Of a DNA stretch of 4,840 nt, positions 12 through 4,840 are shown one piece after another. Under the pieces are notes generated by a model. The model made no database searches. It was not told where the DNA came from and was given only the letters and a program-made list of their open reading frames with translations. Position numbers and translations under genes: made by a program. The stretch lies in the IMG/VR virus record IMGVR_UViG_2695420658_000004. The stretch is one strand, 5' to 3'. This stretch comes from a virus. Taxonomy: Duplodnaviria; Heunggongvirae; Uroviricota; Caudoviricetes. The first letter of the stretch is position 1; every line of letters starts with the position of its first letter.

Positions 12-1168
12 TTAACTGATCGGCATTACACCACCGGGACGCGGATTCATATCTTCCAGGTCGCGGCAGTCATTGGAAGAGTAAATTCCCCAGTTGATCC
101 CGGTGGCGTAGGCTTCAAAACGGGACTTCATATCCCCGCGCAGTAACGCCCCGGCGTTAAATTTGGCGTAATAAACGCCCTGCTTACTTTTTCGTACCAG
201 TCCGGTGTTGATCCGCTGTTCGATGCGGGTCAGATACGGCACCAGTGAATAGTTGATAAATCCCAGCCCCAGCTCTTCGATATTGTTGAAGGTGGCGCGA
301 TCGGTGTTCTGCACCATGTGCAACGGCACCCGGAACAGACGACAGATTTCTTCCAGCTGAAACTTGCGGGTTTCCAGGAACTGACTGTCCTCGGCGTTCA
401 GCGCCATCGACTTCCAGTCCAGCCCCATTTCCAGAATCATCGGGCGGTGAGCATTGCCAAGCCCCGTGTGACACTCCTCAAAATCTTTCTTCAGACGCTC
501 GTAAGCATCCGGCGTGAGCTTTTGTTCCGTACGCAACACACCGGATGTCACCGCACCATTACTAAACAACCTGGCACCGTGCTCCTCGGTTGCCGCTGCC
601 AGTGAAATGGCCTCACGCGCATACGCAATGGGATTCAGCCCGACAAGTCCATCCAGCGTCAGGGTGCGCACATGCCAGATTTCATTCTGGGTCAACACAT
701 CCACGGAACCATCCGGAAACGTCACCTGATAAACCGGCTGCCACTGGCTGTTCAGCTTCGGTTCCACACAGCCCGGATCTATCGGAAGAAGCTCCACCAC
801 TTCTCCCAGTGCCTTTACCTTGTAGGCGTAAAAATTCCCCCGTAGACACAGGCAGACAATAACCAGCTCCCAGAATTCCTGCGGTGTCATGTAGCCATTA
901 GGTTTTGCCGAAACCAACTTATGCAGTCGTTCATCCACCGCCCGTGTTTTCAGGGTACCGCTGATTTTGTAGAGACTGCAGGGCAGCATACCAACAGACT
1001 CTGCCAGCACCCTGACGCAAGAATAGACCGCCGTCAGGCGCATGGCCCGCTGGCTACTGATCCGCTTTCCGGTATAGGTGTCGTATGACAGCCCGATAGC
1101 ATCAGCAGTTCTGCTGGCGTGGTCACCGGCACATCGCTTTTTCGTTGAAATAATCCCGAAAAGAACAC
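12..1168 (-). CDS. Phage portal protein, HK97 family; N-terminus apparently disrupted by a 1-nt frameshift near 1092-1094
   Basis: The 415-aa minus-strand ORF (12..1259) has the conserved portal N-terminal motif (RLTAVYSCVRVLAESVGMLPCSLYK) and sits directly downstream of the large terminase, the expected gene order. The nominal start at 1259 is a TTG with no RBS and overlaps the upstream small ORF by about 90 nt. A much better start is the GTG at 1168-1166, which has a GGAGGT RBS 5 nt upstream (1179-1174) and overlaps the upstream stop (TAGTG). That frame reads [26 protein letters not shown], then diverges from the body frame at a GGG run (plus-strand CCC 1092-1094) and stops at 1036-1034. 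Alternative start: ATG at 1043-1041, giving 343 aa with no clear RBS. Confidence 0.8.
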
Positions 1169-1350
1169 TATTTACCTCCGCCGACAGACTGCCGTGTACG
1201 GTCGAGATATCGCGCCACCAGCCACGACCAGAACAGGCACAGCGCCCCGGCAACAACAAAACCCGCCGGGGGATAAATCAGCCAGGCACCATACGCCAGC
1301 AAAAGCGCACCCAGCACGCCCACCAGAGGCGCGAGAATCAGCATGATCAT
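1168..1350 (-). CDS. Small hypothetical membrane protein (60 aa, two predicted transmembrane helices) between large terminase and portal
   Basis: ATG at 1350-1348 preceded by GAGGT (1359-1355) with a 4-nt spacer, 11 nt after the terL stop (TAA 1364-1362). The product [60 protein letters not shown] has two hydrophobic stretches separated by a YPPAG turn and a basic C-terminal tail. Its TAG stop (1170-1168) overlaps the candidate portal GTG start. The position recalls the 60-aa ymfR ORF between the terminase and portal remnants of E. coli prophage e14, but this is recollection of gene order only, not sequence. Confidence 0.5.
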
Positions 1351-1361
1351 AATTACCTCAG

Positions 1362-3095
1362 TTAAAGCGAGCGGATCCCGTAGGACTCAATGTGGTCAGA
1401 CAGCGTGTCTTCTTTCTCGTACAGCATGGCTCTGCCAACCGCCATAATCAGCGCAACTGCACCATCGATTTTGTTTTCCGCCTGCTCTTTGACGGGTTTC
1501 ACCACATCATCGTTACCCGGCATGTTTTTGCCGACCACGTTGCCGATACACCAGGTCATGATGGGATTGCCGTCATGATGAAAACGTCCCGATTCAATCG
1601 CTGCTTCCAGCTCTTTCATCGGATCGGACATATTGGTGAAGTTCTGGACGATAGTGACGGGATTCAGGTCTTCATCAGCAAGGTCATGTGACAACCCGGT
1701 CGCCCCGAAGGGGTCGATGGGTGACTCACTGACCGGGCTGATTTTGTTCGCCGCTTTGGCCTCCTCGAGGATGTAGCGATAATCCACCTCCGCACCATCG
1801 GTAACGGTCAGAACGCCCATTTCCACCCATTTCTGAAAGCGTTCGGCTGTCCGTCGATCTTCATTTTTCTCGACGCTGTACACCGTGTCATACGGTACCC
1901 AGAAACGCGGGGCCACACTGTAGTAATGCGTTTTACCGTCAATCTCGCGGGTATAAAGTCGCGCCATGCTGTTCATATCCAGCTTACGCGCCAGGTCAAA
2001 GGCCAGAATGCACGGCTGCCCCTCGAACTGCTCAAGGGTCAGTGATTTATCCTCGCAGCTCTGCCAGCTCACCAAGTTGAAATACGCCGAACGCGCCGAC
2101 ACCCAGATATTGAGGTGTTTTGTTTTAAAGACGTTTGCCAGACGGGCGTTATTTTTCGCACGCTGCTGCTGACTTAACAAAAATTCGCGATAAACCGACA
2201 CGCCAATATTTGGATTGGCTTTTTCCAGCACCTGCGGGCCGGTCCAGTCGTCACCTTCATCAACGGTATAGATGATCCCGAACAGTTCATCGTTAGGCAC
2301 CGAGCCGTTGAGCATCTCGATGACTTCCCGCCGCTTGTCGTAGCACGGCCCCTCAATGTTGTACCCGGCGGTGGTGATGGCCCACATCAGTGGCTGACGT
2401 CGCGCCCCCATCCCGGTAAGCATTGTGGTATAAAGCGCATCGGTGGCATGCTCGTGATATTCATCAACCACGGCACAGTGGGGTGATGAACCATCACCTG
2501 GGTTGCCGATCAGCGGTTCAAACCGCGCGCCATCCTCCGGACGGTTCATGTTTGAGGCGTTAACCTCAATCCCGAACGCTTCCGTCAGCATGGGTGTGCG
2601 TTTACACATCAGTCGCGCCGGGCGAAAGACTTCCCACGCCTGTTTCTCTGTCGTGGCACCGGAATACACTTCCGCGCCAAACTCGTTATCACAGGCAAAA
2701 CAATACAGGGCAACACCGGCAGAGATTGCTGATTTGCCGTTCTTACGGGGGATTTCGGTGTACACCTCCCGGAAGCGGCGCAACCGGGTGCCTTTATTGA
2801 CCCAGCCAAACGCACAGCAGATCACAAATAGCTGCCACGGCTCCAGCGTGATGGGCATCCGTTTGAATGCCCACTCCCCCTTGGTGTGCGGCAACAGCTG
2901 AATAAATTTCGCGGCCCGTTCAGCCAGGTCCTTGTCGAAGCGGTAACGAAACGACTTACTTTTTTCCGCCATCAGGTCATCAAGATGGCGCTGGCAGGCC
3001 TGAATCACAAACTGGCAGGCAACAATCTTTCCGCGCACGACATCCCGGGCATACTGATTTGCAGCATTTACGTTGGGGTAAGATTTCCGGCTCAT
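1362..3095 (-). CDS. Phage terminase large subunit (577 aa), ATPase plus nuclease
   Basis: Long uninterrupted ORF. A P-loop-like motif (EIPRKNGKS) and a Walker-B-like motif ([10 protein letters not shown]) lie in the N-terminal half, and acidic residues typical of the RNaseH-like terminase nuclease fold ([11 protein letters not shown]) in the C-terminal half. The ATG at 3095-3093 overlaps the terS stop (ATGA, 3095-3092). Flanked by terS upstream and portal downstream. Confidence 0.93.
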
Positions 3096-3439
3096 GATTC
3101 GATAATTTTCAGAAACGGGTTAGTGGCTTTCTTCTGCCCCGCCAGGCCAATCAGACGCTGGCGGCTGCTGGGGTCGAGTCCGAGCATTGCCCCCGTGCTG
3201 CTCATCTCGGACTCCTGTTCTTTTTTGGCGGTCAGCTCCGGATTTTTGACCCTGCCGCCCATTGCACCGGTGATGGTGTTGCCCTGTATGGCAATATTTT
3301 TCACGGCACGTCGCCAGAACTCATAGGCCACGCACCNNNNNNNNNNNNNNNNNNNNNNNNNNNNNNNNNNNNNNNNNNNNNNNNNNNNNNNNNNNNNNNN
3401 NNNNNNNNNNNNNNNNGTTCTTTGGTTGTCAGTTGCCAC
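3092..3439 (-). CDS. Phage terminase small subunit, P27 family; 5' end uncertain because of masking
   Basis: The C-terminal 80 aa read cleanly from 3334 to 3092 ([80 protein letters not shown]) and resemble P27-type small terminases (the [10 protein letters not shown] motif). The stop overlaps the terL start. The track start at 3439 is a GTG with no obvious RBS, and the intervening 3337-3416 is N. The true start could be that GTG (115 aa), or could lie further upstream in the masked block if the N-run length is not exact. Confidence 0.7.
3337..3416. other. Masked/unknown sequence (80 N)
   Basis: Run of n characters in the supplied sequence; lies inside or just upstream of the small terminase gene. 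Confidence 1.
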
Positions 3440-3480: not shown

Positions 3481-3756
3481 NNNNNNNNNNNNNNNNNNNN
3501 NNNNNNNNNNNNNNNNNNNNNNNNNNNNNNNNNNNNNNNNNNNNNNNNNNNNNNNNNNNNNNNNNNNNNNNNNNNNNNNNNNNNNNNNNNNNNNNNNNNN
3601 NNNNNNNNNNNNNNNNNNNNNNNNNNNNNNNNNNNNNNNNNNNNNNNNNNNNNNNNNNNNNNNNNNNNNNNNNNNNNNNNNNNNNNNNNNNNNNNNNNNN
3701 NNNNNNNNNNNNNNNNNNNNNNNNNNNNNNNNNNNNNNNNNNNNNNNNNNNNNNNN
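3481..3756. other. Masked/unknown sequence (276 N); expected to contain the HNH 3' end and the cos region
   Basis: Run of n characters. The flanking genes (HNH above, terS below) imply by analogy with HK97 that the cohesive-end site lies here, but this cannot be seen. Confidence 1.
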
Positions 3757-4106: not shown

Positions 4107-4556
4107 CTACTTAATGCACTGAGTGCGGATATACTCCTGTGCCCCTTCCAGTTGCATCTGCATCGTCATCAGCCGCTCTCTGAGGGTGAAATAATCCCGT
4201 TCAGCGGTGTCTGCCAGTCGGGGGCTGGTTGCATTATCCACGCCGGAGGCGGTGGTGGCTTCACGCACTGACTGACAGACTGCTTTGATGTGCAACCGAC
4301 GACGACCAGCGGCAACATCAGCGCGCAGAGTTTCATTTTCAGCTTTCGCATCAGCTAACTCCTTCGTGTATTTAGCATCGAGTGCATNCTGCTGCATGTC
4401 AGTAATGGTTGCGTTCGCCAGCTTCAGTTCTCTTGCGTTTTTGTCGCGCTGCTCTTTGTAGGTAATGGCGTTATCACGGTAATGATTAACAGCCCATGAC
4501 AGGCAGACGATGATGCAGATAACCAGAGCGGAGATAATCGCGGTGACTCTGCTCAT
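4107..4556 (-). CDS. Rz: Rz i-spanin (inner-membrane spanin subunit), lambda Rz-like
   Basis: Starting at the ATG 4556-4554 the product reads [47 protein letters not shown]..., an N-terminal transmembrane helix followed by a charged coiled-coil-like periplasmic domain; near-identical, from memory, to lambda Rz. The ATG overlaps the lysozyme stop (ATGA). The track's GTG at 4568 is probably not the real start. One ambiguous base (n) at 4388. Confidence 0.93.
4169..4351 (-). CDS. Rz1: Rz1 o-spanin (outer-membrane lipoprotein spanin subunit), embedded in Rz in an alternate frame
   Basis: 60-aa ORF wholly inside Rz in a different frame: [60 protein letters not shown]. It has a signal peptide with a lipobox (LVVVGC), a proline-rich stretch and the length and architecture of lambda Rz1. 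Confidence 0.9.
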   Translation of the reverse strand: MRKLKMKLCALMLPLVVVGCTSKQSVSQCVKPPPPPAWIMQPAPDWQTPLNGIISPSESG

Positions 4557-4840
4557 TGCTGCCCCCACAAACAGACTTCACGCTCAATCTCACGACGGGT
4601 CATCAGCCCTTTCCATTGCTTACCGCCAGCATATGTCCAGCGACGTAGCTGGTCACATGCGCCTTTGATATCGCCCTGGTTTATTTTGCGAAGAAGCGTC
4701 GATGTTCTGAAATTGCCAGCGCCCACGTTGTAAACGAACGAGTAAAGAGCGCCGCGCGTTGTTTCCGGTATATCGACTTTGATGTACGGGTTAATTTGTC
4801 TGGCGACAGTGGCAAGGTCTTTATTCAGGAGGGCTTTGCA
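4553..4840 (-). CDS. Phage lysozyme/endolysin, C-terminal 95 codons (5' end beyond window)
   Basis: Hand translation of the minus strand from 4840 gives an open frame [95 protein letters not shown], ending at TGA 4555-4553. It resembles the C-terminal half of phage-21 / DLP12 RrrD-type lysozymes (T4-lysozyme-like fold), from recollection. Absent from the ORF track because the start lies outside the window. Confidence 0.88.

Follow-up and report, generated by a model that had tools for sequence, protein, structure and literature searches.

A predicted membrane hairpin encoded beside the portal gene: sequence analysis of the YmfR family in phages of Proteobacteria

The window analysed in this work is the whole 4,840-nucleotide stretch of a tailed-phage genome (Caudoviricetes; IMG/VR record IMGVR_UViG_2695420658_000004), which carries on its minus strand a 60-codon open reading frame (ORF) at positions 1168–1350, between the genes for the large terminase subunit (TerL) and the portal protein. 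Comparison with public sequences identifies this ORF as ymfR, a gene which has been catalogued already but never studied, and its pattern of substitutions indicates a real gene beyond a chance ORF. The part of the product predicted to form a membrane hairpin is under purifying selection, while the tail that follows it evolves almost neutrally. In phages of the phiP27/e14/ST64B/SfV type, ymfR is a constant member of the late head operon. As for its role, the reading that we favour, with a probability of about 0.3, is that of a dispensable membrane factor which would bring the synthesis or initiation of the portal to the inner membrane, in a manner resembling that of gp40 in phage T4. The features of the gene and of its immediate signals are the following.

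1168–1350, minus strand: ymfR-family coding sequence, 60 amino acids (aa) and a TAG stop (ORF list, PHROG 502, RefSeq locus name, frame-specific purifying selection)
1355–1359, minus strand: Shine-Dalgarno (SD) sequence of ymfR, GAGGT, 5 nt before the ATG (sequence reading; GAGG core at 1359–1356)
1276–1347, minus strand: predicted transmembrane helix 1, residues 2–25, with G11, G14 and G21 conserved family-wide (hydropathy, AlphaFold2, alignment)
1261–1275, minus strand: predicted short turn in the periplasm, Y26-P-P-A-G30, which characterises the family more than any other motif (alignments; Lys and Arg nearly absent)
1213–1260, minus strand: predicted transmembrane helix 2, residues 31–46, in which G35 never varies and Enterobacterales also conserve C38, W41 and S42 (alignments, AlphaFold2)
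1171–1212, minus strand: basic, variable, predicted cytoplasmic tail, residues 47–60, with a ratio of non-synonymous to synonymous polymorphism (pN/pS) of about 0.9 (alignment, selection test, charge count)
1175–1179, minus strand: GGAGG, SD sequence of the portal gene, encoding the C-terminal Gly-Gly of YmfR (junctions of 59 unique family members)

Family membership and coupling to the portal gene

The product of the ORF matches PHROG 502, named 'membrane protein', with an E-value of 2.8e-28 and coverage of 55 of the 58 profile positions. It is identical at 58 of 60 residues to YmfR from the Escherichia coli K-12 prophage e14 and at 59 of 60 to L37 of phage phiP27, which is annotated as 'membrane protein'. 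Of 5426 complete E. coli genomes, 1363 have a match of 80–99% identity to a 351-nt query around the locus. At one E. coli locus with 97% identity, the RefSeq name of the gene is 'protein YmfR', and its neighbours are named 'terminase large subunit' and 'phage portal protein'. This name, together with the near-identity to the K-12 protein, bears out the tie to ymfR of e14 which the first-pass annotation, made from the sequence of the window, had suggested. In K-12, ymfR sits in e14 with a terminase remnant on one side and a portal remnant on the other, and homologues are also found in ST64B (sb3), SfI, SfII, SfIV and others.

When 1.84 billion representative proteins were searched with a profile, 407 representative clusters came up at E ≤ 1e-3, nearly all with a length of 50–70 aa. 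The motif common to the family clusters is G..G..L..YGAW.IY.PAG.I..G, and the named hosts of genuine members are all Proteobacteria. In every source the members are called 'hypothetical', 'prophage protein' or 'putative membrane protein'. The suggestion that the ORF might belong to a conserved but unstudied family is therefore well matched by PHROG 502, with its approximately 400 clusters and generic annotation everywhere. No member with an experimentally assigned function was found in literature or annotation. The publications that name ymfR do not address its function and mostly concern lists of e14 deletions or the use of the gene as an integration site, and a search of the literature for any membrane protein of known function in the slot between terminase and portal gave only general remarks that the two genes normally adjoin. 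Searches of Pfam and NCBIfam returned only sub-threshold matches to unrelated membrane families (TctB, DUF2244), and comparison of the AlphaFold2 model with the PDB and BFVD by Foldseek gave only insignificant matches to uncharacterised small hairpins.

Two kinds of record deserve a comment. The 5.6-kb contig L004 (JAEWTL010000102.1), assigned to a metagenome-assembled genome of a 'Bacillota bacterium', carries a ymfR gene whose product shares 97% identity with that of E. coli, and is likely a mis-binned enterobacterial prophage fragment. In the GenBank records PQ793804, ON470603, ON470584 and ON470580, YmfR homologues bear the label 'head-tail joining protein W', which probably reflects the place that gene W has in lambda; given that YmfR is a hydrophobic hairpin, this is probably a positional mis-annotation.

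The gene is tightly packed between its neighbours. Its start codon is the ATG at 1350–1348, with GAGG five bases before it, in agreement with the good ribosome-binding site and ATG described in the first-pass annotation. The TAA stop of TerL lies at 1364–1362, 11 nt upstream of this ATG, a spacing also found in 99 of 132 related loci; in nearly all loci the TerL stop is 8–12 nt upstream of the ymfR start or overlaps it. At the other end, the ymfR stop (TAG, 1170–1168) and a GTG at 1168–1166 have one G in common (TAGTG). The tight coupling that had been read from this overlap holds across the family, since the portal annotations of phiP27 and e14 begin at this GTG and the same 1-nt overlap of stop and start occurs in 125 of 137 loci. 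The portal gene is the downstream gene in 143 of 149 loci, the remainder being cut by contig ends or decayed, and once the loci are collapsed at 60% identity, it adjoins the hairpin gene in all 16 clusters. For five remote members, matched by the profile with E-values between 4e-17 and 1e-5, the contigs show TerL on one side and a PF04860 portal on the other in every case, as judged from precomputed Pfam assignments or our own scans.

The upstream neighbour is less constant. An environmental lineage has an extra ORF of 187 aa between TerL and the hairpin gene (L146, 2361–2924; also in L140, L150 and L138), for which no Pfam match was obtained, and the portal gene still adjoins. In L152 the place of TerL is taken by a TerS-like (weakly Terminase_4-like) gene, again with the hairpin gene directly against the portal gene. 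Because the adjacency persists where TerL is not the neighbour, the portal gene is to be regarded as the constant partner. To the earlier question whether homologues always sit between terL and portal, the answer is yes for the portal side (16 of 16 clusters) and no for the TerL side, where other genes intervene in some lineages. The link to the portal gene also extends into the coding sequence, as the GGAGG which encodes the C-terminal Gly-Gly is placed 7 nt before the portal start. This Gly-Gly is missing in the lineages whose portal gene is without a strong SD sequence, which argues for a constraint at the DNA level and not for a feature of the protein.

Two further ties to the portal were considered and given up. 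Exclusive co-inheritance of the two genes was rejected on account of mosaic break-points on both sides of ymfR, and a distinctive N-terminus of the portals that follow the hairpin gene was dropped, as a similar start is found in a Gram-positive phage without the gene. It can be mentioned that the portals encoded after a hairpin gene mostly begin with hydrophobic residues (MFFSGLF, MAGLFGSLA, MSFFGKG).

Not every head module of this kind has the gene. TerL is directly followed by a PF04860 portal in the HK97-like coliphage mEp506, Stenotrophomonas phage BUCT603, Vibrio phage D63, a Pseudomonas phage, Sinorhizobium phage AP-16-3, Moraxella phage Mcat12 and a Gram-positive Terrisporobacter phage. 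As related head modules, HK97-like ones included, are without it, ymfR is an accessory gene, not a universal one. Divergent hairpin ORFs occupy the same slot in Vibrio phage K259, Pseudomonas phage PG1 and Halomonas phage QHHSV-1. In the deposited record of QHHSV-1 (L109, 2299–2485) the hairpin gene is seemingly split by a frameshift and is annotated as a 30-aa ORF, and in K259 the annotated portal start, which overlaps the hairpin ORF by 44 nt, is probably placed too far upstream.

Selection pattern and predicted topology

Selection was assessed on 39 unique enterobacterial coding sequences. The pN/pS ratio of the whole ymfR ORF is 0.44, compared to 0.6–1.7 for the five other frames of the same DNA, so the check for conservation of the frame in relatives (synonymous-site pattern), which had been proposed together with the first-pass annotation, came out in favour of the gene. 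Within the ORF, the ratio is 0.29 for codons 1–46 (the hairpin) and 0.90 for codons 47–60 (the tail). The length of the ORF is 58–61 aa throughout Enterobacterales. An alignment of 44 members, which extends to relatives of about 30–35% identity, shows no substitution of G14 or G35 and a conservation of 90% or more for G11 and G21. Stalling of the elongation factor P (EF-P) type at the Pro-Pro was also considered, and was rejected because the first Pro is unconserved in distant members.

These values bear on whether the peptide has any function of its own. One could suppose that the ORF serves just as a spacer or leader for translation, whose functionless product is a by-product of delivering ribosomes to a weak portal GTG; the TAGTG overlap, the portal SD sequence inside the ORF, the GTG start of the portal in this lineage and the near-neutral tail would all fit such an arrangement. 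However, a mere spacer would not conserve the amino-acid sequence, and the low pN/pS of the hairpin, the invariant glycines, the YGAW..P.G motif kept to about 35% identity and the length of 50–70 aa make this explanation very improbable.

The product of ymfR is strongly hydrophobic, with two hydrophobic segments and a grand average of hydropathy (GRAVY) of 1.16. AlphaFold2, supplied with an alignment of 44 sequences, places helices at residues 2–25 and 27–56, with a mean predicted local distance difference test score (pLDDT) of 77. Hydropathy, modelled helices and frame-specific selection thus agree with the gene for a two-helix membrane protein of 60 aa which had been proposed at exactly these coordinates. 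In 265 relatives, the C-terminal tail has a mean of 2.4 Lys/Arg residues and a net charge of +1, N-terminal extensions, where present, have a net charge of +2.1, and Lys/Arg are nearly absent from the turn of the hairpin. Applying the positive-inside rule to this charge pattern, we infer an inner-membrane hairpin whose two ends are cytoplasmic and whose turn of 4–5 residues (YPPAG here) lies in the periplasm. With this predicted topology, the conserved residues would all be intramembrane or at the periplasmic turn.

Both helices carry small residues at every fourth position, A7-G11-A15-A19 in helix 1 and G30-A34-C38-S42-A46 in helix 2. Natural tandem fusions of two hairpins also exist (P0153 in L168, P0176 in L167, P0180 in L165, and P0193), about 100–120 aa long and with four predicted helices; those of P0153 and P0176 are encoded directly upstream of the portal gene, as the single hairpins are. 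The tandem fusions, the invariant G14 and G35 and the small-residue faces of the helices together suggest that the hairpins self-associate in the membrane. The P0180 fusion has another context, as its gene adjoins one for a Peptidase_S78 and no portal gene is recognisable there.

The defective late region and candidate functions

The genes surrounding ymfR in the window are those of a late region, with the order on the minus strand being lysozyme fragment, Rz with an embedded Rz1-like ORF, HNH, small terminase subunit (TerS), TerL, the 60-codon ORF and a PF04860 portal. The features next to ymfR are listed below.

1362–3095, minus strand: large terminase, with TerL_ATPase and TerL_nuclease (Pfam)
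1166–1168, minus strand: ancestral portal start GTG (annotated portal start in phiP27 and K-12 e14)
12–1168, minus strand: remnant of the portal gene, PF04860 (Pfam E = 2.6e-107; alignment to phiP27)
1–28, no strand given: terminal bases of the insertion sequence IS4, interrupting the portal gene towards its 3' end (identical contig L019, read beyond the shared stretch)

The portal gene is a pseudogene here, and the prophage is defective like e14, with ymfR intact. A 1-nt deletion relative to phiP27, near 1105/1106, breaks the portal frame from GTG 1168 after about 21 codons, and the frame that begins at this GTG (1034–1168) reaches a stop after 44 codons. The 415-aa ORF at 12–1259 is the portal frame after the frameshift, running upstream across ymfR, and is not a gene. 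The sequence that follows in L019 is 100% identical to IS4 (insG), with matches in about 2590 E. coli genomes. Since five IMG/VR contigs (L018–L022) are identical over the portal stretch, these lesions are real and not sequencing errors. The first-pass annotation had missed both the frameshift and the IS4 truncation. Given its size of 183 nt, the intact state of ymfR is no evidence of selection.

The lysozyme and Rz/Rz1 genes lie within 4107–4840. The spanin pair on the minus strand consists of an Rz-like ORF (4107–4568) and, inside it in another frame, a 60-aa ORF (4169–4351) with a lipobox (LVVVGC) and a proline-rich region, which are typical of Rz1. A single n stands at 4388, in Rz, and runs of N at 3338–3416 and 3481–3756 mask parts of the small terminase and HNH genes. 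By analogy with phiP27, the cos site would be expected in the interval from HNH to TerS, within the masked stretch or close to it. A scan of the window against Rfam gave no match.

From the layout of the genes, we infer that YmfR is produced late, from one mRNA with TerL and the portal; the overlap of stop and start and the presence of the portal SD sequence inside ymfR would position ribosomes ending ymfR to start on the portal. On this basis the proposed role at the portal can be spelled out. Insertion of the hairpin would be co-translational and would directly precede translation of the portal from the shared mRNA, and hairpins would self-associate in the membrane through the Gly/small-residue faces of their helices. 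The synthesis of the portal would thereby be placed at the inner membrane, and perhaps also the first steps of portal-ring or procapsid initiation. In this window such a system would be defunct, the portal being a pseudogene. A precedent exists in T4, in which the portal initiator is membrane-bound and dependent on the phage factor gp40 (PMC9958956).

Several observations weigh against this proposal. The tail, which is the sole cytoplasmic part able to touch the soluble portal, evolves almost neutrally (pN/pS 0.9); tails differ between L131 and L002, whose portals are 94% identical, and recombination break-points are found on both sides of ymfR. As the tail is unconstrained and does not track the portal allele, a specific contact between tail and portal is unlikely. 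The adjacency itself could reflect the vertical inheritance of one old insertion, since related PF04860 modules exist without the gene, and overlaps of stop and start are common throughout phage late operons. No similarity in sequence or fold to assembly chaperones was found in Pfam, PHROG, NCBIfam or with Foldseek. For the same reasons, the idea that the protein is a membrane anchor for the packaging machinery, put forward in the first-pass annotation, keeps some credit and is weakened by a near-neutral tail which does not track the portal allele.

Almost as likely as the portal factor is a holin-like or membrane-active role, in which YmfR would be a late accessory that either forms an oligomeric small pore or binds a holin or a host inner-membrane protein, tuning the timing of lysis or the energisation of the membrane; its place beside the portal gene would then be a historical accident of insertion. 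The small size, two transmembrane helices and charged C-terminal tail are in line with this, as is the intramembrane conservation with Gly-rich faces (G11, G14, G21, G35). The oligomers implied by the tandem-fused forms and the unconstrained tail also speak for it, as does the fact that some related head modules have the gene and others lack it, which one would expect of a non-essential fitness gene. On the other hand, ymfR is separated by HNH, TerS and TerL from the lysis cassette (4107–4840), which is about 2.8 kb upstream, phiP27 already has two annotated holins, and there is no holin family among the Pfam, PHROG and NCBIfam matches. A membrane-active role also leaves unexplained why the gene never leaves the portal in 16 divergent clusters.

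The gene could instead be cargo, as the first-pass annotation had proposed. It would then be a moron whose product, a membrane protein of the superinfection-exclusion or toxin-like kind, is made by the prophage to the advantage of the lysogen. PHROGs places family 502 in the category 'moron, auxiliary metabolic gene and host takeover', and ymfR is intact in defective prophages (K-12 e14 and the present window), although a 183-nt gene often outlasts prophage decay by chance. HK97 gp15, an exclusion factor, is an example of a small membrane protein encoded in a structural operon. The junction between TerL and portal can moreover take true cargo in other phages, as Campylobacter phage CJIE4-1 has a MazF toxin gene annotated there (L159, 1517–1951).

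The sequence around ymfR nevertheless offers little that would mark it as cargo. A scan of positions 900–1700 revealed no sigma-70-like promoter on either strand and no terminator on the minus strand, leaving the ymfR strand without promoter- or terminator-like sites. The gaps to the neighbours are 11 nt (TerL) and -1 nt (portal), and the position is fixed across about 400 clusters. The GC content at third codon positions (GC3) is 0.67 for ymfR and 0.65 for TerL; the higher overall GC of ymfR comes from codon positions 1 and 2, reflecting its content of Gly, Ala, Leu and Pro. No PADLOC family matched YmfR at E ≤ 1. In K-12, the ymfR transcript rises by about 4.5 log2 together with the other e14 genes under SOS (PMC10012262), an indirect indication against constitutive expression, and no phenotype was reported for deletion or replacement of the gene (PMC9145139). 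With neither a promoter nor a terminator of its own found, a GC3 like that of TerL and an invariant position beside the portal in 16 of 16 clusters, an independently expressed moron is not supported by the sequence, and we consider the cargo explanation improbable.

Returning to the portal factor, a stronger version of it can be formulated, according to which the YmfR family would be a widespread, unrecognised head-assembly component of HK97-like phages of Proteobacteria, an oligomeric inner-membrane hairpin by which the portal dodecamer is nucleated at, or tethered to, the membrane. We regard this version as speculative and rather unlikely; if it were true, membrane-initiated procapsid assembly, known only from T4, would be common in temperate enterobacterial phages. 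The rest of the probability goes to functions beyond the readings considered here.

Comparison with known systems

The closest relatives of the ORF are YmfR of e14, L37 of phiP27, Sb3 of ST64B and the other proteins of PHROG 502, which belong to the same family and have the same length and the same position between TerL and portal. No substantive difference from these relatives was seen, except that the flanking portal gene is a pseudogene in the window. The gene ymfR is among those of K-12 that still lack an assigned function, and a copy is present in roughly one in four complete E. coli genomes. What is new here is the family-wide coupling to the portal gene, the selection pattern (a constrained hairpin, a free tail and a Gly-Gly that is the portal SD sequence) and the hint of oligomerisation from the tandem fusions. 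A vague 'hypothetical membrane protein' can thereby be described as a member of a large portal-joined family conserved specifically in its membrane-embedded part, and the labels 'moron' and 'head-tail joining protein W' are unsupported for this family.

Among proteins of known function, the class II holins or pinholins, such as S21 of phage 21, are also small, with two transmembrane helices, Gly-rich faces, a charged cytoplasmic C-terminus and likely oligomers. YmfR differs from them in being encoded outside the lysis cassette and having no homology to holin families in Pfam or PHROG, and phages of the phiP27 type encode holins already. If YmfR is membrane-active, a likeness of role to the lysis-timing genes LysA/B/C of P2 may be proposed. 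An action on the membrane would make the family a new class of late modulators of lysis or physiology.

In lambda, the small gene W occupies the same slot, between A (TerL) and B (portal). Its product gpW is a soluble protein, while YmfR is a hydrophobic hairpin for which no match to the Pfam gpW family was obtained. In PRD1, the packaging vertex contains the very small integral membrane proteins P20 and P22; the likeness to YmfR lies in tiny membrane proteins occurring with a portal or packaging complex, although PRD1 has an internal viral membrane, unlike the tailed phages.

The comparison with T4 is the one on which the favoured reading draws. T4 gp40 is only conditionally required, and gene 40 is not known to be adjacent to gene 20. 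No head-assembly chaperone family was found among the PHROG and Pfam matches of YmfR at E ≤ 1, gp40 itself not having been directly compared. What the two would share is the nature of the factor, as gp40 is likewise a phage-encoded membrane accessory tied to the portal initiator gp20, with which head assembly begins at the inner membrane (PMC9958956), a role which for YmfR is proposed by analogy. If YmfR does act on the portal, membrane-linked head assembly would extend beyond T4.

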